From Escherichia coli (GTDB taxonomy: Bacteria; Pseudomonadota; Gammaproteobacteria; Enterobacterales; Enterobacteriaceae): a stretch of 64,000 bases of DNA. The position numbers and the translations under genes were made by a program. Where the stretch lies: NCBI RefSeq assembly GCF_013122565.1, contig NZ_CP053258.1. One strand, given 5' to 3'. The notes under the pieces were generated by a model. That model did not search any database and had not been told where the DNA came from. It saw only the letters and a program-made list of their open reading frames with translations. Below, piece by piece: positions 22,147 through 58,371 of this stretch. Position 1 is the first letter of the stretch; every line of letters starts with the position of its first letter.

Positions 22147-22218
22147 GTAGACCGGATAAGACGCTGTAGGCCGGATAAGACGCGTCAGCGTCGCATCCGG
22201 CAATCAGCATCCGGCGAT
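22147..22218. repeat. REP/BIME element between ypfG and tktB
   Basis: CCGGATAAGACGCTGTAGGCCGGATAAGACGCG...CGCATCCGGC. Confidence 0.8.
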
Positions 22219-33511: not shown

Positions 33512-34348
33512 ATGGCGCATGACGAACAATGGCTCACCCCACGTCTGCACATAGCGGCAACGCTGTGTAACCAGACGCCCGCCGCGACGGAATCCCCGCT
33601 GTGGCTGGGGGTGGATCTGGGCACCTGCGATGTGGTGTCGATGGTTGTCGACCACGACGGTCAGCCGGTGGCGGTATGCCTCGACTGGGCCGATGTGGTC
33701 CGCGACGGCATCGTCTGGGATTTCTTCGGTGCGGTCACCATTGTTCGTCGCCATCTCGACACCCTTGAGCAGCAATTCGGTCGCCGTTTTAGCCATGCGG
33801 CGACTTCATTTCCTCCGGGTACGGACCCGCGTATTTCCATCAACGTGCTGGAATCAGCCGGACTGGAAGTGAGCCATGTGCTGGATGAGCCAACCGCAGT
33901 CGCGGATCTGCTGCAACTGGATAACGCCGGTGTAGTGGATATCGGCGGCGGCACCACCGGCATTGCCATCGTGAAAAAGGGCAAGGTGACGTACTCGGCG
34001 GATGAAGCCACTGGCGGACATCACATCTCTCTGACTCTCGCCGGAAATCGTCGTATTTCGCTGGAAGAGGCGGAGCAGTACAAGCGCGGTCATGGTGAAG
34101 AGATTTGGCCCGCGGTGAAACCGGTGTACGAAAAAATGGCGGACATTGTCGCCCGGCATATTGAAGGGCAGGGCATTACTGATTTATGGCTGGCGGGCGG
34201 CTCCTGTATGCAACCGGGCGTGGCGGAACTGTTTAGCAAACAATTCCCGGCATTACAGGTGCATTTACCGCAGCACAGTTTGTTTATGACCCCGCTGGCG
34301 ATCGCCAGTAGTGGGCGAGAGAAAGCGGAGGGGATCTATGCAAAATGA
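33512..34348 (+). CDS. eutJ: ethanolamine-utilisation chaperone-like protein EutJ (actin/Hsp70 fold)
   Basis: 278 aa, MAHDEQWLTPRLHIAATLCNQ. Confidence 0.93.
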   Translation: MAHDEQWLTPRLHIAATLCNQTPAATESPLWLGVDLGTCDVVSMVVDHDGQPVAVCLDWADVVRDGIVWDFFGAVTIVRRHLDTLEQQFGRRFSHAATSFPPGTDPRISINVLESAGLEVSHVLDEPTAVADLLQLDNAGVVDIGGGTTGIAIVKKGKVTYSADEATGGHHISLTLAGNRRISLEEAEQYKRGHGEEIWPAVKPVYEKMADIVARHIEGQGITDLWLAGGSCMQPGVAELFSKQFPALQVHLPQHSLFMTPLAIASSGREKAEGIYAK

Positions 34349-35525
34349 ATTGCAGACCGCGCTCTTTCAGGCGTTCGATACCCTGAATCTGCAACGGGTA
34401 AAAACATTTAGCGTTCCACCGATGACGCTTTGCGGTCCGGGCGCGGTGAGCAGTTGTGGGCAGCAAGCGCAAACGCGTGGGCTGAAACATCTGTTCGTGA
34501 TGGCAGACAGCTTTTTGCATCAGGCGGGGATGACCGCCGGGCTGACGCGCAGCCTGGCCGTTAAAGGTATCGCCATGACGCTCTGGCCATGTCCGGTGGG
34601 CGAACCATGCATCACCGACGTATGTGCAGCCGTGGCGCAGCTGCGTGAATCAGGCTGTGACGGGGTGATCGCGTTTGGCGGCGGCTCGGTGCTGGATGCG
34701 GCGAAAGCCGTGGCGTTGCTGGTGACGAACCCCGATAGCACGCTGGCGGAAATGTCAGAAACCAGCGTTCTGCAACCGCGCCTGCCGTTGATTGCCATTC
34801 CAACGACCGCCGGAACCGGCTCTGAAACCACCAACGTAACGGTGATTATCGACGCGGTGAGCGAGCGCAAGCAGGTGTTAGCCCATGCCTCGCTGATGCC
34901 GGATGTGGCGATCCTCGACGCCGCATTGACCGAAGGTGTGCCGTCGCATGTCACGGCGATGACCGGTATCGACGCGTTAACTCATGCCATTGAAGCGTAC
35001 AGCGCGCTGAACGCCACACCGTTTACCGACAGTCTGGCGATTGGCGCTATTGCGATGATTGGCAAATCGCTGCCGAAAGCGGTGGGCTACGGTCACGACC
35101 TTGCCGCGCGCGAGAGCATGTTGCTGGCTTCATGTATGGCGGGAATGGCGTTTTCCAGTGCGGGGCTTGGGGTATGCCACGCGATGGCGCATCAGCCGGG
35201 GGCGGCGCTGCATATTCCGCACGGTCTGGCGAACGCCATGCTACTGCCAACGGTGATGGAGTTTAACCGGATGGTCTGTCGCGAACGCTTTAGTCAGATT
35301 GGTCGGGCACTGCGAACTAAAAAATCCGACGATCGTGACGCTATTAACGCGGTAAGTGAGTTGATTGCGGAGGTCGGGATCAACAAGCGGCTGGCAGACG
35401 TGGGCGCAACCACCGGACATTACGGCGCATGGGCGCAGGCCGCGCTGGAAGATATTTGTCTGCGCAGCAACCCGCGTACCGCCAGCCTGGAACAGATTGT
35501 CGGCCTGTACGCAGCGGCGCAATAA
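34338..35525 (+). CDS. eutG: iron-containing alcohol dehydrogenase EutG
   Basis: 395 aa from MQNELQTALFQAFDTLNLQRVKTF; overlaps eutJ 3' end. Confidence 0.9.
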   Translation: MQNELQTALFQAFDTLNLQRVKTFSVPPMTLCGPGAVSSCGQQAQTRGLKHLFVMADSFLHQAGMTAGLTRSLAVKGIAMTLWPCPVGEPCITDVCAAVAQLRESGCDGVIAFGGGSVLDAAKAVALLVTNPDSTLAEMSETSVLQPRLPLIAIPTTAGTGSETTNVTVIIDAVSERKQVLAHASLMPDVAILDAALTEGVPSHVTAMTGIDALTHAIEAYSALNATPFTDSLAIGAIAMIGKSLPKAVGYGHDLAARESMLLASCMAGMAFSSAGLGVCHAMAHQPGAALHIPHGLANAMLLPTVMEFNRMVCRERFSQIGRALRTKKSDDRDAINAVSELIAEVGINKRLADVGATTGHYGAWAQAALEDICLRSNPRTASLEQIVGLYAAAQ

Positions 35526-35526
35526 A

Positions 35527-35611
<85 letters not shown>

Positions 35612-35641: not shown

Positions 35642-36868
35642 ATGGGAATTAACGAAATCATCATGTACATCATGATGTTCTTTATGCTGATAGCTGCCGT
35701 AGACAGGATCCTGTCGCAGTTCGGCGGTTCTGCTCGTTTCCTCGGTAAGTTCGGTAAAAGTATCGAAGGATCAGGCGGTCAGTTCGAAGAAGGCTTTATG
35801 GCAATGGGCGCTCTGGGTCTGGCGATGGTCGGTATGACCGCGCTGGCACCGGTACTGGCTCACGTACTCGGGCCGGTAATTATCCCGGTTTACGAAATGC
35901 TCGGCGCAAACCCGTCAATGTTCGCCGGAACGCTGCTGGCGTGCGATATGGGCGGCTTCTTCCTCGCCAAAGAGCTGGCGGGCGGCGACGTAGCAGCGTG
36001 GCTATACTCTGGGTTAATTCTCGGGTCGATGATGGGGCCAACGATTGTGTTTTCCATTCCGGTGGCGCTCGGCATTATCGAACCTTCTGACCGTCGTTAT
36101 CTGGCGCTCGGCGTGCTGGCGGGCATTGTGACCATTCCGATTGGTTGTATCGCTGGTGGTCTGGTAGCTATGTACTCCGGTGTTCAGATCAACGGCCAGC
36201 CGGTGGAATTCACTTTCGCCCTGATCCTGATGAACATGATCCCGGTGATCATTGTTGCGATTCTGGTGGCGCTGGGGCTGAAATTCATCCCGGAAAAAAT
36301 GATCAACGGCTTCCAGATCTTCGCCAAATTCCTCGTTGCATTGATCACCCTCGGTCTTGCCGCTGCGGTAGTGAAATTCCTGCTTGGCTGGGAACTGATC
36401 CCCGGTCTGGATCCTATCTTTATGGCCCCTGGCGATAAACCCGGTGAGGTGATGCGCGCCATTGAAGTTATCGGTTCTATCTCCTGCGTGCTGTTAGGGG
36501 CGTATCCGATGGTGCTGCTGCTGACCCGTTGGTTTGAAAAACCGCTGATGAGCGTCGGTAAAGTGCTGAATATGAACAACATCGCGGCAGCCGGCATGGT
36601 GGCAACGCTTGCCAACAACATCCCGATGTTCGGCATGATGAAGCAGATGGATACCCGCGGCAAAGTCATCAACTGCGCCTTCGCCGTTTCCGCTGCTTTC
36701 GCCCTGGGCGACCACTTAGGCTTCGCCGCTGCCAACATGAACGCCATGATTTTCCCGATGATTGTCGGCAAGTTGATCGGCGGCGTAACGGCGATTGGCG
36801 TGGCGATGATGCTGGTGCCAAAAGAAGACGCGACCGCGGCTAAAACCGAAGCGGAGGCACAATCGTGA
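35642..36868 (+). CDS. eutH: ethanolamine permease EutH
   Basis: 408 aa, MGINEIIMYIMMFFMLIAAVDRIL, polytopic membrane protein. Confidence 0.95.
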   Translation: MGINEIIMYIMMFFMLIAAVDRILSQFGGSARFLGKFGKSIEGSGGQFEEGFMAMGALGLAMVGMTALAPVLAHVLGPVIIPVYEMLGANPSMFAGTLLACDMGGFFLAKELAGGDVAAWLYSGLILGSMMGPTIVFSIPVALGIIEPSDRRYLALGVLAGIVTIPIGCIAGGLVAMYSGVQINGQPVEFTFALILMNMIPVIIVAILVALGLKFIPEKMINGFQIFAKFLVALITLGLAAAVVKFLLGWELIPGLDPIFMAPGDKPGEVMRAIEVIGSISCVLLGAYPMVLLLTRWFEKPLMSVGKVLNMNNIAAAGMVATLANNIPMFGMMKQMDTRGKVINCAFAVSAAFALGDHLGFAAANMNAMIFPMIVGKLIGGVTAIGVAMMLVPKEDATAAKTEAEAQS

Positions 36869-38268
36869 ACACTCGCCAGCTACTGAGCGTCGGTATCGAT
36901 ATCGGCACTACCACCACCCAGGTGATCTTCTCCCACCTGGAGCTGGTTAACCGTGCGGCGGTGTCGCAGGTGCCGCGCTACGAATTCATCAAACGCGAAA
37001 TTAGCTGGCAAAGCCCGGTGTTCTTTACCCCTGTCGATAAACAGGGTGGTTTAAAAGAAGCGGAACTGAAAACCTTAATCCTCGAGCAATATCAGGCTGC
37101 GGGCATTGCGCCGGAAAGCGTTGATTCTGGTGCCATCATCATCACCGGTGAAAGCGCGAAAACCCGCAATGCTCGCCCGGCGGTGATGGCGCTCTCCCGG
37201 TCGCTGGGCGATTTTGTCGTCGCCAGCGCCGGGCCGCATCTCGAATCCGTGATCGCCGGTCACGGTGCCGGGGCGCAAACCCTTTCTGAACAACGGCTGT
37301 GTCGGGTCCTGAATATCGATATCGGCGGTGGCACCGCGAACTACGCCCTGTTCGATGCCGGAAAAATCAGCGGTACTGCCTGCCTCAACGTCGGCGGTCG
37401 CCTGCTGGAAACCGACAGCCAGGGGCGCGTGGTTTACGCTCATAAACCGGGGCAGATGATTGTGGATGAGTGCTTCGGCGCAGGCACCGACGCCCGTTCG
37501 CTGACCGGCGCGCAGCTGGTGCAGGTTACCCGGCGGATGGCAGAGCTGATTGTCGAAGTGATTGACGGAACGCTTTCGCCGCTCGCGCAGGCATTAATGC
37601 AAACCGGTTTGCTGCCCGCAGGTGTTACGCCCGAAATCATTACGCTTTCTGGCGGCGTGGGCGAATGTTATCGCCACCAGCCCGCCGACCCGTTCTGTTT
37701 TGCCGATATTGGCCCGCTGCTGGCAACGGCGCTGCATGACCATCCGCGCCTGCGTGAGATGAACGTGCAGTTTCCGGCGCAAACCGTGCGTGCCACGGTG
37801 ATTGGCGCGGGGGCACATACCCTTTCGCTCTCTGGCAGCACAATCTGGCTTGAGGGCGTACAACTGCCGCTGCGCAATTTGCCGGTGGCGATCCCGATTG
37901 ATGAAACGGATCTGGTGGGTGCCTGGCAACAGGCGCTGATTCAGCTGGATCTTGATCCCAAAACTGACGCGTACGTGCTGGCGCTTCCCGCCTCGCTGCC
38001 TGTGCGTTACGCCGCGGTACTGACGGTCATCAACGCGTTGGTCGATTTCGTCGCGCGTTTTCCGAATCCGCATCCCCTGCTGGTGGTGGCCGGGCAGGAC
38101 TTTGGTAAAGCTCTGGGCATGTTGTTGCGCCCACAGCTACAACAACTCCCGTTGGCAGTCATTGACGAAGTGATTGTCCGCGCGGGGGACTATATCGACA
38201 TTGGTACGCCTCTTTTTGGCGGATCGGTTGTGCCGGTGACGGTGAAATCACTCGCATTTCCTTCCTGA
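36865..38268 (+). CDS. eutA: ethanolamine ammonia-lyase reactivating factor EutA
   Basis: 467 aa, MNTRQLLSVGIDIGTTTTQVIFSHLEL. Confidence 0.95.
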   Translation: MNTRQLLSVGIDIGTTTTQVIFSHLELVNRAAVSQVPRYEFIKREISWQSPVFFTPVDKQGGLKEAELKTLILEQYQAAGIAPESVDSGAIIITGESAKTRNARPAVMALSRSLGDFVVASAGPHLESVIAGHGAGAQTLSEQRLCRVLNIDIGGGTANYALFDAGKISGTACLNVGGRLLETDSQGRVVYAHKPGQMIVDECFGAGTDARSLTGAQLVQVTRRMAELIVEVIDGTLSPLAQALMQTGLLPAGVTPEIITLSGGVGECYRHQPADPFCFADIGPLLATALHDHPRLREMNVQFPAQTVRATVIGAGAHTLSLSGSTIWLEGVQLPLRNLPVAIPIDETDLVGAWQQALIQLDLDPKTDAYVLALPASLPVRYAAVLTVINALVDFVARFPNPHPLLVVAGQDFGKALGMLLRPQLQQLPLAVIDEVIVRAGDYIDIGTPLFGGSVVPVTVKSLAFPS

Positions 38269-38279
38269 GGGAACGACTT

Positions 38280-39641
38280 ATGAAACTAAAGACCACATTG
38301 TTCGGCAATGTATATCAGTTTAAGGATGTAAAAGAGGTGCTGGCTAAAGCCAACGAACTGCGTTCGGGGGATGTGCTGGCGGGCGTCGCAGCGGCAAGCT
38401 CACAGGAGCGCGTGGCGGCAAAGCAGGTGTTGTCGGAAATGACCGTAGCGGACATCCGCAATAATCCGGTGATTGCCTATGAAGATGACTGCGTGACGCG
38501 GCTGATTCAGGACGATGTTAACGAAACGGCCTACAACCAGATTAAAAACTGGAGCATCAGCGAACTGCGTGAGTATGTGCTGAGCGATGAAACCAGCGTG
38601 GACGACATTGCCTTTACCCGCAAAGGGCTGACCTCGGAAGTGGTCGCGGCGGTAGCGAAGATTTGCTCCAACGCGGACCTGATTTACGGCGCGAAGAAAA
38701 TGCCGGTAATCAAAAAGGCCAATACCACCATCGGTATTCCGGGCACCTTCAGCGCCCGTTTGCAGCCAAATGACACCCGTGACGACGTGCAAAGTATCGC
38801 CGCGCAAATCTACGAAGGGCTTTCCTTCGGGGTGGGCGATGCGGTGATCGGCGTTAACCCGGTGACTGACGACGTGGAAAACTTAAGCCGCGTGCTGGAC
38901 ACCATCTATGGCGTGATCGACAAATTCAACATCCCAACTCAGGGCTGCGTACTGGCGCACGTCACCACCCAGATCGAAGCGATTCGTCGCGGCGCGCCTG
39001 GCGGACTGATTTTCCAGAGTATCTGTGGCAGCGAAAAAGGGCTGAAAGAGTTTGGCGTGGAACTGGCGATGCTCGACGAAGCGCGCGCAGTGGGTGCAGA
39101 GTTCAACCGTATCGCCGGGGAAAACTGCCTCTACTTCGAAACCGGACAAGGTTCAGCGCTATCCGCTGGCGCTAACTTCGGCGCAGACCAGGTGACGATG
39201 GAAGCACGTAACTATGGGCTGGCGCGTCATTACGATCCGTTTATCGTCAACACCGTGGTCGGCTTTATTGGGCCGGAGTATCTCTACAACGACCGCCAGA
39301 TTATCCGTGCGGGCTTAGAAGATCACTTTATGGGCAAGCTGAGCGGCATCTCTATGGGCTGTGACTGCTGTTACACCAACCACGCTGACGCTGACCAGAA
39401 CCTCAACGAAAACCTGATGATCCTGCTCGCCACCGCAGGCTGCAACTACATCATGGGGATGCCGCTGGGTGATGACATCATGCTCAACTACCAGACCACC
39501 GCATTCCACGATACCGCCACTGTGCGTCAGTTACTCAACCTGCGCCCGTCACCGGAGTTTGAACGCTGGCTGGAAAGCATGGGCATTATGGCAAACGGTC
39601 GCCTGACCAAACGGGCGGGCGATCCGTCACTGTTCTTCTGA
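38280..39641 (+). CDS. eutB: ethanolamine ammonia-lyase large subunit EutB
   Basis: 453 aa, MKLKTTLFGNVYQFKDVKEVLAKANELRSGD; directly follows eutA. Confidence 0.96.
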   Translation: MKLKTTLFGNVYQFKDVKEVLAKANELRSGDVLAGVAAASSQERVAAKQVLSEMTVADIRNNPVIAYEDDCVTRLIQDDVNETAYNQIKNWSISELREYVLSDETSVDDIAFTRKGLTSEVVAAVAKICSNADLIYGAKKMPVIKKANTTIGIPGTFSARLQPNDTRDDVQSIAAQIYEGLSFGVGDAVIGVNPVTDDVENLSRVLDTIYGVIDKFNIPTQGCVLAHVTTQIEAIRRGAPGGLIFQSICGSEKGLKEFGVELAMLDEARAVGAEFNRIAGENCLYFETGQGSALSAGANFGADQVTMEARNYGLARHYDPFIVNTVVGFIGPEYLYNDRQIIRAGLEDHFMGKLSGISMGCDCCYTNHADADQNLNENLMILLATAGCNYIMGMPLGDDIMLNYQTTAFHDTATVRQLLNLRPSPEFERWLESMGIMANGRLTKRAGDPSLFF

Positions 39642-40558: not shown

Positions 40559-41218
40559 ATGCCAGCTTTAGATTTGATTCGACCGTCTGTCACCGCTATG
40601 CGGGTGATTGCCTCCGTTAACGCCGATTTTGCGCGTGAACTGAAATTGCCGCCGCATATTCGTAGCCTCGGTCTGATTTCTGCTGATTCCGATGACGTCA
40701 CCTACATTGCCGCTGATGAAGCGACCAAGCAGGCGATGGTGGAAGTGGTGTATGGCCGCTCGCTGTATGCGGGCGCTGCACACGGCCCGTCACCGACTGC
40801 CGGTGAAGTGCTGATTATGCTTGGTGGGCCAAACCCGGCGGAAGTGCGTGCAGGTCTGGATGCGATGGTTGCGCATATTGAAAATGGCGCTGCTTTCCAG
40901 TGGGCTAATGATGCGCAAGATACGGCATTCCTGGCACATGTGGTTTCGCGTACCGGTTCTTATCTTTCATCAACCGCCGGGATCACGCTTGGCGATCCGA
41001 TGGCGTATCTGGTGGCACCGCCGCTGGAAGCGACCTACGGCATTGATGCAGCGTTGAAATCTGCCGACGTACAGCTGGTGACCTATGTCCCGCCACCGTC
41101 TGAAACTAACTACTCGGCAGCATTTTTAACCGGTAGCCAGGCAGCGTGTAAAGCGGCCTGTAACGCCTTTACCGATGCAGTGCTGGAAATCGCGCGTAAT
41201 CCAATCCAGCGTGCGTAA
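40559..41218 (+). CDS. eutL: microcompartment shell protein EutL (tandem BMC domain, trimer)
   Basis: 219 aa, [31 protein letters not shown]. Confidence 0.95.
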
Positions 41219-41230
41219 TGGAGGTTGCCG

Positions 41231-41731
41231 ATGATCAATGCACTGGGATTGCTGGAAGTGGACGGCATGGTCGCTGCGATAGATGCAGCGGATGCCATGC
41301 TCAAAGCAGCTAACGTTCGTCTGCTCAGTCACGAAGTGCTTGACCCTGGTCGCTTAACGCTGGTGGTGGAAGGCGATCTGGCGGCGTGTCGTGCTGCGCT
41401 GGACGCAGGTTGTGCTGCCGCGATGCGTACCGGGCGTGTCATCAGCCGCAAGGAGATCGGTCGGCCAGACGATGACACCCAGTGGCTGGTTACTGGCTTT
41501 AACCGCCAGCCGAAGCAACCCGTAAAGGAACCCGACGCGCCAGTTATCGTCGCGGAATCTGCTGACGAGTTGTTGGCGCTGTTAACATCAGTACGTCAGG
41601 GAATGACGGCAGGAGAAGTGGCTGCCCACTTTGGCTGGCCGCTGGAAAAAGCCAGAAATGCGCTCGAACAGCTCTTTTCTGCAGGGACGTTACGTAAACG
41701 CAGTAGTCGTTATCGTCTCAAGCCCCATTAA
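41231..41731 (+). CDS. eutK: microcompartment shell protein EutK (BMC domain plus C-terminal nucleic-acid-binding-like domain)
   Basis: 166 aa from MINALGLLEVDGMVAAIDAADAMLKAANV. Confidence 0.9.
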   Translation: MINALGLLEVDGMVAAIDAADAMLKAANVRLLSHEVLDPGRLTLVVEGDLAACRAALDAGCAAAMRTGRVISRKEIGRPDDDTQWLVTGFNRQPKQPVKEPDAPVIVAESADELLALLTSVRQGMTAGEVAAHFGWPLEKARNALEQLFSAGTLRKRSSRYRLKPH

Positions 41732-41776
41732 CCTGTCGGAGGTGCCGGGTGTCCTACAACACCCGGCATTAACATC

Positions 41777-42829
41777 ATGAAAAAGACCCGTACAGCCAAT
41801 TTGCACCATCTTTATCATGAACCCTTACCCGAAAACCTGAAGCTCACGCCGAAGGTCGAAGTGGATAATGTTCATCAACGACAGACAACGGATGTCTATG
41901 AACATGCTTTAACGATTACCGCCTGGCAGCAGATTTACGATCAGCTGCATCCGGGCAAGTTTCATGGTGAATTTACGGAAATTCTACTCGATGATATTCA
42001 GGTTTTTCGTGAATACACCGGTCTGGCGCTGCGTCAGTCGTGCCTGGTCTGGCCGAACTCGTTCTGGTTTGGCATTCCGGCGACGCGCGGTGAGCAGGGA
42101 TTTATCGGTTCGCAATGTCTGGGAAGCGCAGAAATAGCGACGCGCCCCGGTGGCACTGAGTTTGAATTAAGTACGCCGGACGATTACACGATCCTGGGCG
42201 TAGTGCTTTCTGAAGATGTCATCACCCGTCAGGCTAACTTTTTGCATAATCCGGATCGGGTATTACATATGCTGCGTAGCCAGTCGGCGCTGGAAGTGAA
42301 AGAGCAGCATAAAGCCGCGCTGTGGGGCTTTGTCCAACAGGCGCTGGCGACGTTTTGCGAGAACCCGGAAAATCTCCATCAGCCTGCAGTGCGAAAAGTG
42401 CTGGGGGATAATTTGCTCATGGCGATGGGGGCGATGCTGGAAGAAGCGCAACCAATGGTGACGGCGGAAAGCATCAGTCATCAGAGTTACCGTAGATTAC
42501 TTTCCCGCGCCCGTGAATATGTGCTGGAAAACATGTCCGAACCGGTGACGGTGCTGGATTTGTGTAATCAACTGCATGTCAGCCGCCGCACGCTACAAAA
42601 CGCGTTTCACGCTATTTTAGGCATTGGCCCGAACGCGTGGCTGAAACGCATTCGCCTGAACGCCGTACGCCGCGAACTGATAAGCCCGTGGTCGCAAAGC
42701 ACAACGGTAAAAGACGCCGCCATGCAGTGGGGATTCTGGCATCTGGGGCAATTTGCCACGGATTACCAGCAGCTGTTTTCCGAGAAGCCGTCGTTGACGT
42801 TGCATCAGCGGATGCGGGAATGGGGGTGA
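41777..42829 (+). CDS. eutR: AraC-family transcriptional activator of the eut operon EutR
   Basis: 350 aa, [26 protein letters not shown]; C-terminal AraC HTH. Confidence 0.93.
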
Positions 42830-42834
42830 GGGGG

Positions 42835-43737
<903 letters not shown>

Positions 43738-44607
43738 TTATCGCTTTTTCGAATGTGCTTTCTGGTTGTCGAACCAGTGGAAATAACTGATCACGCCTTC
43801 AGCAATCGCTGTGGCGATTTTCTGACGAAACGCCGCCGTGCCTAACAGTCGCTCTTCTTCCGGGTTGGTGATAAACGAGGTTTCCACCAGCACCGAAGGA
43901 ACCGACGGCGATTTCAACACCACAAACGCGGCTTGTTCGGTGTTGCGGCTGTGCAGTTTATGCACCGGCTTAATCTTCTTCAGAATATGCGAGCCAAGCG
44001 TCAGACTGTTTTTAATAGTATCGGTTTGCACCAAATCAAACAGCACTTGTTGCAATAGGTGATCCTTGTCAGTTGCCTTTTTACCGGCAACTTCATCAGC
44101 GCGGTTTTCGCGTTCAGACAGGTACTTCGCCATTGCGCTACTTGCCCCACGGTTAGAAAGGGCAAAAACCGAAGCGCCTGCTGCTTTTGGGTTAGTAAAA
44201 CCGTCGGCGTGAATTGACATAAACAGATCTGCTCGATGCTTATGGGCGATTTCAACACGATCGTAAAGGGGGATAAACGTATCGCCAGAACGCGTTAAAC
44301 GTGCATCAATGCCGTGATTGCGCAAAATGGAACGAACATTTTTGGCGATCGCCAGCACCACATGTTTTTCTTTCGAACCGTTGCGGCCAATCGCTCCGGT
44401 ATCAATCCCGCCATGACCAGGATCGAGAACGACTATCCGTTTGCTCCCGGCTTTTTTGGCTTTCGGCTTACTGTGTCCGTTGCTGGTTTTTAAAGGTTCG
44501 TCTTTGGCGATGGCTTGCGACATTCCTGACAACGTCAGGGCAGCCAAACCGGCTTTCAGCACCTGGCGGCGCGAAGTGAGTGTTTTTAGTGGTTTAAAAG
44601 TGCTCAT
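43738..44607 (-). CDS. amiA: N-acetylmuramoyl-L-alanine amidase AmiA
   Basis: 289 aa, MSTFKPLKTLTSRRQVLKAGLAALTLSGMSQA twin-arginine signal. Confidence 0.95.
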   Translation of the reverse strand: MSTFKPLKTLTSRRQVLKAGLAALTLSGMSQAIAKDEPLKTSNGHSKPKAKKAGSKRIVVLDPGHGGIDTGAIGRNGSKEKHVVLAIAKNVRSILRNHGIDARLTRSGDTFIPLYDRVEIAHKHRADLFMSIHADGFTNPKAAGASVFALSNRGASSAMAKYLSERENRADEVAGKKATDKDHLLQQVLFDLVQTDTIKNSLTLGSHILKKIKPVHKLHSRNTEQAAFVVLKSPSVPSVLVETSFITNPEEERLLGTAAFRQKIATAIAEGVISYFHWFDNQKAHSKKR

Positions 44608-44820
44608 ACGGCCTGAGTTGTAATAATAAAGTTCCAGATGTTATATCGTATCGCGTAATCCGTTACGACGGTTTGATGTTGAGAATTGTTTTACTTTTCA
44701 TTTCAATAGTTGACAACTCCCCATTATGCCACTTTTTCAACCTATTTTCGTCAGATATTGGCTAATTCGACCGTTCACGCCATAATCAGCCTTTTAACCC
44801 GCAAAAAGGTAACGAATACC

Positions 44821-45246
44821 ATGGAGATACGCGTATTTCGCCAGGAAGATTTCGAAGAGGTCATCACCCTTTGGGAACGTTGCGACTTGCTGCGTCCGTG
44901 GAACGATCCGGAAATGGACATCGAGCGTAAGATGAACCATGACGTCAGTTTGTTTTTGGTCGCTGAGGTGAACGGTGAAGTGGTCGGAACGGTGATGGGC
45001 GGTTATGACGGGCATCGCGGGTCTGCTTATTATCTTGGCGTGCATCCAGAGTTTCGTGGGCGTGGGATTGCCAATGCGTTGCTTAACCGGCTGGAGAAAA
45101 AGCTGATTGCTCGCGGCTGCCCGAAAATTCAGATCAACGTGCCGGAAGATAACGACATGGTGCTCGGAATGTATGAACGCCTGGGATATGAACACGCCGA
45201 CGTGCTGAGTCTGGGTAAGCGTTTGATTGAAGATGAAGAGTACTGA
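44821..45246 (+). CDS. ypeA: GNAT-family acetyltransferase YpeA
   Basis: 141 aa from [29 protein letters not shown]; ORF-track 37-codon extension rejected. Confidence 0.88.
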
Positions 45247-45703: not shown

Positions 45704-45803
45704 TGCCGGATGCGGCGTGAACGCCTTATCCGGCCTACAAAACATCGAAAATTCAATATATTGCAGGAGAAAGTAGGCCTGATAAGCGTAGCGCATCAGG
45801 CAA
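45704..45803. repeat. REP/BIME element (two PUs with linker) after yfeZ
   Basis: GCCGGATGCGGCGTGAACGCCTTATCCGGCCTAC ... linker AATTCAATATATTGCAG ... GTAGGCCTGATAAGCGTAGCGCATCAGGC. Confidence 0.85.
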
Positions 45804-58277: not shown

Positions 58278-58371
58278 ACGCAAAACTGCCTGATGTGCCA
58301 CGCTTATCAGGCCTACAAGGTTTCTGCAATATATTGAATTAGCACGATTTTGTAGGCCGGATAAGGCGTTT
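58278..58371. repeat. BIME: intact PU plus left half of a second PU that is split by the IS
   Basis: TGCCTGATGTGCCACGCTTATCAGGCCTAC ... CTGCAATATATTGAATT ... GTAGGCCGGATAAGGCGTTT. Confidence 0.8.

Follow-up and report, generated by a model that had tools for sequence, protein, structure and literature searches.

The window analysed here, a 64,000-nucleotide stretch of the Escherichia coli chromosome, contains the 3′ end of the eut operon and the convergent genes amiA and hemF. The gene identities are firm. EutR is matched over residues 1–350 by the NCBIfam equivalog NF007522 (789 bits), HemF by the equivalog NF003727 for oxygen-dependent coproporphyrinogen oxidase (475 bits), AmiA by NF007652 (579 bits), and EutK, the product of the gene upstream of eutR, by an NCBIfam model with 362 bits. 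The elements of the junction are as follows.

41777..42829, plus strand: eutR coding sequence, the final gene of the eut operon (ORF list, NF007522)
42830..42834, no strand: 5-bp spacer GGGGG (sequence)
42835..43734, minus strand: hemF coding sequence (ORF list, NF003727)
43738..44607, minus strand: amiA, 3 nt upstream of hemF and on the same strand (ORF list, NF007652)

The eutR gene (41777..42829, plus strand; 350 amino acids) ends with TGA at 42827–42829, and hemF (43734..42835, minus strand; 299 amino acids) ends with TAA at 42835–42837, which appears as tta on the plus strand. The five base pairs between the two stop codons, GGGGG at 42830–42834, give a plus-strand junction that reads ...gaa tgg ggg TGA GGGGG TTA cac cca atc.... 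A preliminary description of this DNA had placed the convergent eutR and hemF stop codons 5 bp apart, and this is exact, as read from both the sequence and the ORF list. From their layout, amiA and hemF are probably co-transcribed. Transcription of amiA-hemF is OxyR-inducible besides being constitutive. The eutR gene of Salmonella also closes its operon and is served by an inducible promoter, P1, and a weak constitutive promoter, P2, located just upstream of the gene (review PMC5821096).

The same arrangement is found in nearly all records of the species. The annotation of K-12 MG1655 places the end of hemF at 2554124 and eutR at 2554130..2555182, an identical 5-bp gap; strain EC1515 has the 5-bp gap too, and the 85-nt junction of strain FORC_069 is identical to that of the window. 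A 1-kb query from the window was matched in 5,424 of 5,426 complete E. coli genomes. Of 5425 E. coli records, 5396 (~99.5%) matched an 85-nt junction probe in a single piece with at least 80% coverage, and about 29 are without an intact match. Among the matches listed, 39 rows span the junction, and in all of them the span in the record equals that in the query, giving zero indels across the junction. The near-invariant 5 bp in E. coli could mean constraint; the rarity of indels over such a short divergence explains it equally well.

The base rate of tight convergent ends was estimated from three 50-kb sections of the annotated K-12 genome (150 kb), which hold 24 convergent pairs of coding sequences. 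Six of the 24 pairs (~25%; binomial range roughly 10–47%) are no more than 5 bp apart or overlap: yadE/panD (gap 3 bp), ycaM/ycaN and ydhK/sodC (0 bp each), and amiD/ybjS, ybjD/ybjX, and purR/punR (−4 bp each). Because about one-quarter of the sampled convergent pairs are equally tight, the spacing of eutR and hemF is unremarkable in itself. E. coli as a whole has 704 convergent pairs, 207 of which (~30%) carry a REP element and 306 a bidirectional terminator (10.64898/2026.03.23.713779); many pairs therefore have neither. The eutR-hemF junction is an ordinary one, and both annotation and data that show it are already public.

A consensus scan of both strands of 41500–45000 detected no intrinsic terminator at the junction or close to it. 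Two terminator-like motifs, both weak, were present in this interval, against 5.2 expected from shuffled sequences. Inspection of the sequence revealed no T run after either the eutR or the hemF stop codon, no Rfam family matched 41000–45000 at E values up to 1, and a repeat finder reported no inverted repeat at the junction. The earlier statement that the gap leaves no room for an intrinsic terminator is thus correct: the gap is only 5 bp long, and the scan also found no terminator embedded nearby.

Published data indicate how transcription from hemF ends. Adams et al. 2021 (PMC7815308) defined Rho termination regions in MG1655 from read coverage with and without bicyclomycin in 800-nt windows, and their Supplementary file 2 lists such a region at MG1655 2554640 (+), labelled ‘antisense, eutR’. 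In this single data set, which has low read counts here and relies on a coarse 800-nt window method, the upstream/downstream reads at 2554640 (+) change from 78/18 in untreated cells to 102/106 under bicyclomycin, with a Rho score of 4.50 (p 8.9e-8; PMC7815308). The corresponding position and the hemF-sense tracts upstream of it are listed below.

42319, minus strand: published Rho termination region inside eutR, hemF-sense (MG1655 2554640 (+), mapped by sequence match)
42755..42834, minus strand: C-rich, G-poor tract in the first 80 nt after the hemF stop, candidate Rho loading region (C 32, G 17)
42395..42474, minus strand: second C-rich, G-poor hemF-sense tract, offsets 361–440 (C 31, G 13)

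Position 42319 of the window lies 516 nt beyond the hemF stop codon, hemF being on the plus strand in K-12. Read-through increases when Rho is inhibited in these published K-12 data, which bear on the hemF-sense strand only and come from a strain other than that of the window and from LB, where the eut operon is uninduced. The overlap of transcripts predicted in the preliminary description is therefore supported in the hemF direction, in which hemF-sense RNA of K-12 covers the final 0.5 kb or so of eutR until Rho acts. Untranslated, C-rich and G-poor RNA of approximately 80 nt is found upstream of the termination zone on this strand. A C−G excess of at least +15, as in the tract at 42755..42834, occurs in 1.4% of the 80-nt windows of the whole stretch, and one of at least +18, as in the tract at 42395..42474, in 0.3%; the latter tract precedes the mapped Rho termination region by 76–155 nt. 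The curated Term-seq tables of Adams et al. contain no 3′ end in MG1655 2554000–2555199, where expression is low. This absence fits diffuse, factor-dependent termination; hemF is weakly expressed, and low coverage alone may also account for the missing 3′ end. In the SMRT-Cappable-seq supplements, hemF, eutR, and amiA are absent. Most likely, hemF transcription reads into eutR and is ended there by Rho.

It is unlikely that the bicyclomycin-sensitive RNA antisense to eutR arises instead from a promoter inside eutR, with the hemF transcripts ending elsewhere. Rho-terminated antisense RNAs do form the largest class of Rho termination regions (51.5%; PMC7815308), and the 800-nt upstream window pools hemF reads with antisense-eutR reads. 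However, a scan with strict settings detected no promoter-like (sigma-70-like) site on the minus strand within eutR, and no terminator lies between the hemF stop codon and 42319, so that polymerases leaving hemF must cross this stretch.

A weak hairpin followed by a T-rich tail (GCGGCTTTATGCTGC TCTTTCACTT; 42318..42294, minus strand) begins 1 nt past the mapped Rho coordinate. Its position next to that coordinate is probably a coincidence: such motifs are rarer here than in shuffled sequences, the hairpin is downstream of the coordinate and cannot protect a 3′ end there, and the coordinate itself derives from an 800-nt window statistic.

In the opposite direction, the first 200 nt past the eutR stop codon show a mild C excess (C/G 1.2–1.5), and the consensus scan found no plus-strand terminator-like site beyond eutR up to 45000. 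The most pronounced tract on this strand is located far into hemF.

43550..43669, plus strand: strongest C-rich, G-poor eutR-sense tract, antisense to the 5′ part of hemF (C 35, G 15)

A C−G excess of at least +20, as in this tract, occurs in 0.07% of windows, and its composition makes the tract a candidate for Rho action on eut transcripts. Transcripts of the eut operon would run into the antisense strand of hemF and be ended by Rho within hemF or amiA.

The history of the gap was followed by a scan for the EutR protein with one genome per species, which yielded 63 loci, and the eutR and hemF stop codons were located in each. The 5-bp gap is present in E. coli K-12 and EC1515 (L001 and L002), in Escherichia loci L004, L005, and L037, and in L003. 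The 5-bp spacers of Escherichia read GGGGG, GGGAG, ATAAA, or GGTAA, and the stop codons vary as well (TGA/TAA and TAA/TGA). Citrobacter, the Klebsiella oxytoca group, Salmonella enterica subsp. arizonae, and Pseudocitrobacter have eutR-hemF gaps of 54–150 bp, and at a few loci the gap widens to 425–973 bp. Gaps without REP are found in a ‘Pluralibacter’ MAG (8 bp) and in Intestinirhabdus alba (19 bp). In more distant Enterobacterales, such as Morganella, Dickeya, and Pectobacterium, hemF is not the neighbour of eutR.

Some of these loci call for separate comment. In L037 (Escherichia sp. MOD1-EC7003), eutR is apparently disrupted: the match to the protein is broken beyond residue 215 and that to the locus covers 905 nt versus 1050, with the 5-bp gap retained and the spacer GGTAA. 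A ‘Citrobacter sp.’ MAG has both an E. coli-like locus with the 5-bp gap (L003) and a Citrobacter-like locus with a 54-bp gap (L035), and is likely chimeric. Loci L059, L060, and L061 are enterobacterial eutR fragments with 95–99% protein identity to EutR of the window on contigs of approximately 0.4 kb; they come from assemblies labelled Bacillus hominis and Prolixibacteraceae and are likely contamination.

The 54–150 bp spacers of the relatives consist of REP-type palindromes that vary in number and order, from one to several per gap. The motifs in the orthologous gaps are GCCGGATG...CTTATCCGGCCTAC and TAGGCCTGATAAGCG...CATCAGGCA, and the spacers also hold the REP-type palindromes GCCGGATGCGACGC...GCGTCTTATCCGGCCTAC and TAGGCCTGATAAGCGTAGCGCCATCAGGCA. 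We regard these motifs as REP elements because they are also dispersed in other gaps of the window. Within the eut operon, a REP pair at 35528–35590 occupies the gap between the ORFs 34311–35525 and 35642–36868, which by gene order are probably eutG and eutH. More copies are located at ~10830, 22147–22201, 45725–45786, 57278, and 58303–58365. REPs occupy at least six gaps of the window other than that of eutR and hemF, and three of its six convergent gaps contain them. A pattern search found no REP at the eutR-hemF junction of the window, where 5 bp is too short to hold a palindrome of approximately 35 nt. The 93-bp REP spacer of Citrobacter youngae (L012 3554–3646) forms strong hairpins (z −4.9 and −6.3) with no U-tract, and no terminator-like site was found in three relatives. 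On these sequences, the junction appears never to have carried a classical intrinsic terminator in the clade.

Gene cassettes have also entered the junction. In Escherichia whittamii, a 1.8-kb insertion lies exactly between eutR and hemF (L006 3560–5343) and encodes a TacA-like antitoxin (Pfam PF08681, 88.6 bits) and a 223-amino-acid ORF without a family; the protein beside the antitoxin resembles GNAT proteins weakly, with a score under the Pfam cut-off, and the insertion probably encodes a TacAT-type toxin-antitoxin pair. The eutR gene of this species is two codons longer, with a REP-like hairpin after the new stop codon. Another 1.8-kb insertion, distinct from that of E. whittamii, separates eutR from hemF in E. 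coli N96 (L069 2167–4000); it contains a hypothetical gene and one for a DUF1963-domain protein. The junction thus changes freely between lineages and accepts both REPs and gene cassettes, and the tight form is one of several tolerated states.

We consider it likely that the locus is a terminator-less junction of two convergent units at which Rho ends the read-through from hemF, and that the 5-bp gap is not a selected regulatory device. The amiA-hemF unit and the eut operon would meet with no intrinsic terminator in either. A polymerase passing the hemF stop codon would keep going antisense through eutR, and Rho would load on this hemF-sense RNA because it is untranslated and C-rich; transcription would then be ended approximately 0.5 kb inside eutR, at the place given by the published K-12 data. 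Transcripts of eut would likewise enter the antisense strand of hemF, to be ended by Rho somewhere in hemF or amiA. The 5-bp spacing would simply be the state of the gap that holds neither a REP element nor a gene cassette.

A selected excludon or cis-antisense coupling, in which read-through from hemF damps eutR and sets the threshold of autoinduction while the induced eut operon represses hemF, is very unlikely. It could draw on the hemF-sense RNA that covers approximately 0.5 kb of eutR, on the near-invariant 5-bp spacing across E. coli, and on the Salmonella system, where basal eutR expression from the weak P2 promoter feeds a positive loop, so that small changes could matter (PMC5821096). 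However, a literature search gave no expression link between eutR and hemF; nothing relevant was found in it that links eutR with hemF, or hemF with antisense RNA or bicyclomycin. The free variation of the spacer sequence also speaks against coupling. Selection is further disfavoured because tight ends are as common as in one-quarter of the sampled convergent pairs, because REP elements separate the same genes in sister genera, and because Escherichia tolerates 1.8-kb insertions in E. whittamii and E. coli N96. The interference or antisense effects suggested in the preliminary description may arise incidentally, from polymerase collisions or duplex RNA under strong eut induction.

The two coding ends can be drawn as a stem.

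42816..42848, no strand: imperfect 12-pair interrupted palindrome over both stop codons (folding, shuffles)

The fold energies of this palindrome are −17.8 and −15.6 kcal/mol on the two strands, with z values of −0.60 (plus) and −0.92 (minus), and 48 and 36 of 200 shuffled sequences, respectively, fold as well. No T or A tracts lie beside it. EutR ends in E-W-G-stop (GAA TGG GGG TGA) and HemF in D-W-V-stop (GAT TGG GTG TAA). The palindrome follows from the C-terminal Trp codons, which are conserved in both proteins, and from convergent stop codons, which are nearly complementary anyway. The wobble position of the hemF Val codon varies among relatives (GTG, GTT, GTA) without a compensating change in eutR. 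As a hairpin terminator, the palindrome was rejected, with z values of −0.6 and −0.9, no inverted repeat, no U-tract, and uncompensated wobble changes; we judge it to be a by-product of the coding ends and not a terminator.

It is accordingly most improbable that the palindrome serves as an overlapping bidirectional terminator that pauses both polymerases, so that head-on collisions end the transcripts at the boundary. In its favour, both strands allow an interrupted stem of 12 pairs, and the complementarity of the ends (TGGGNGTGA / TYACACCCA) is found again in other genera and forms the outer helix of the Citrobacter youngae fold. The collision model moreover requires a hairpin and makes a U-tract unnecessary (10.1101/2022.10.23.513370). 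Against it, the fold is at the level of shuffled sequences, the conserved Trp codons account for the complementarity, and the wobble of hemF goes uncompensated in eutR. The Term-seq tables have no 3′ end at the gene boundary, and the hemF-sense signal extends 0.5 kb beyond it and is bicyclomycin-sensitive. The collision model also suits highly expressed pairs best, and both units are weak without induction. A further reading, in which the REP-free junction of Escherichia lets hemF antisense RNA lower the basal level of EutR and the induced eut operon silence HemF, has very little probability; were it true, the P2-driven level of EutR would tune the threshold of eut autoinduction, and the coupling would be absent from Salmonella and Citrobacter, whose units would be insulated by REPs.

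Four known systems come closest to the junction. In Peters et al. 2012, as cited by Adams et al. 2021, and in the data of the latter (PMC7815308), Rho-ended 3′ extensions run antisense into a convergent neighbour, and the eutR-hemF locus is alike throughout: untranslated RNA after the stop codon, C-rich and G-poor tracts, bicyclomycin-sensitive read-through, and no sharp 3′ end listed. Nothing distinguishes it from these extensions, and it is documented in K-12 in the hemF-sense direction only. In relatives, the orthologous gap resembles the REP/BIME elements between convergent genes (10.64898/2026.03.23.713779), whereas the junction of the window has no REP. With overlapping bidirectional terminators (Ju et al. 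2019; 10.1101/2022.10.23.513370), the locus shares a convergent pair and a weak boundary palindrome. However, its hairpin is non-significant (z values of −0.60 and −0.92), where such terminators have a stable one within the overlap; the listed 3′ ends include none at a defined position here, and hemF-sense termination is Rho-dependent. The long 3′ extension antisense to a neighbour of unrelated function recalls an excludon, but the eutR-hemF pair is without a known reciprocal expression effect, and the arrangement is not conserved beyond Escherichia.

A second Rho termination region concerns the interior of the operon. At MG1655 2558053 (+), antisense to eutB, the published signal is much stronger (Rho score 23.4; reads of 523/24 without and 371/399 with bicyclomycin; PMC7815308), which implies an active antisense transcript inside the K-12 eut operon. 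By homology rather than mapping, this position corresponds to approximately 38.9 kb of the window. At 36865–39641 of the window, an ORF matching eutA (467 amino acids, ending at 38268) adjoins one matching eutB (453 amino acids, starting at 38280), both identified by length and order only. At this point between eutA and eutB, K-12 carries the CPZ-55 prophage; the eut operon of the strain of the window seems uninterrupted there.

Both elements of the junction are already known, the gap from the K-12 reference annotation and the Rho region antisense to eutR from a row of a published table. What the present analysis adds is modest and comparative: one junction occurs in REP-insulated, cassette-separated, and uninsulated versions. 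These versions form a natural set that can be used for testing whether REPs shield convergent neighbours from read-through.
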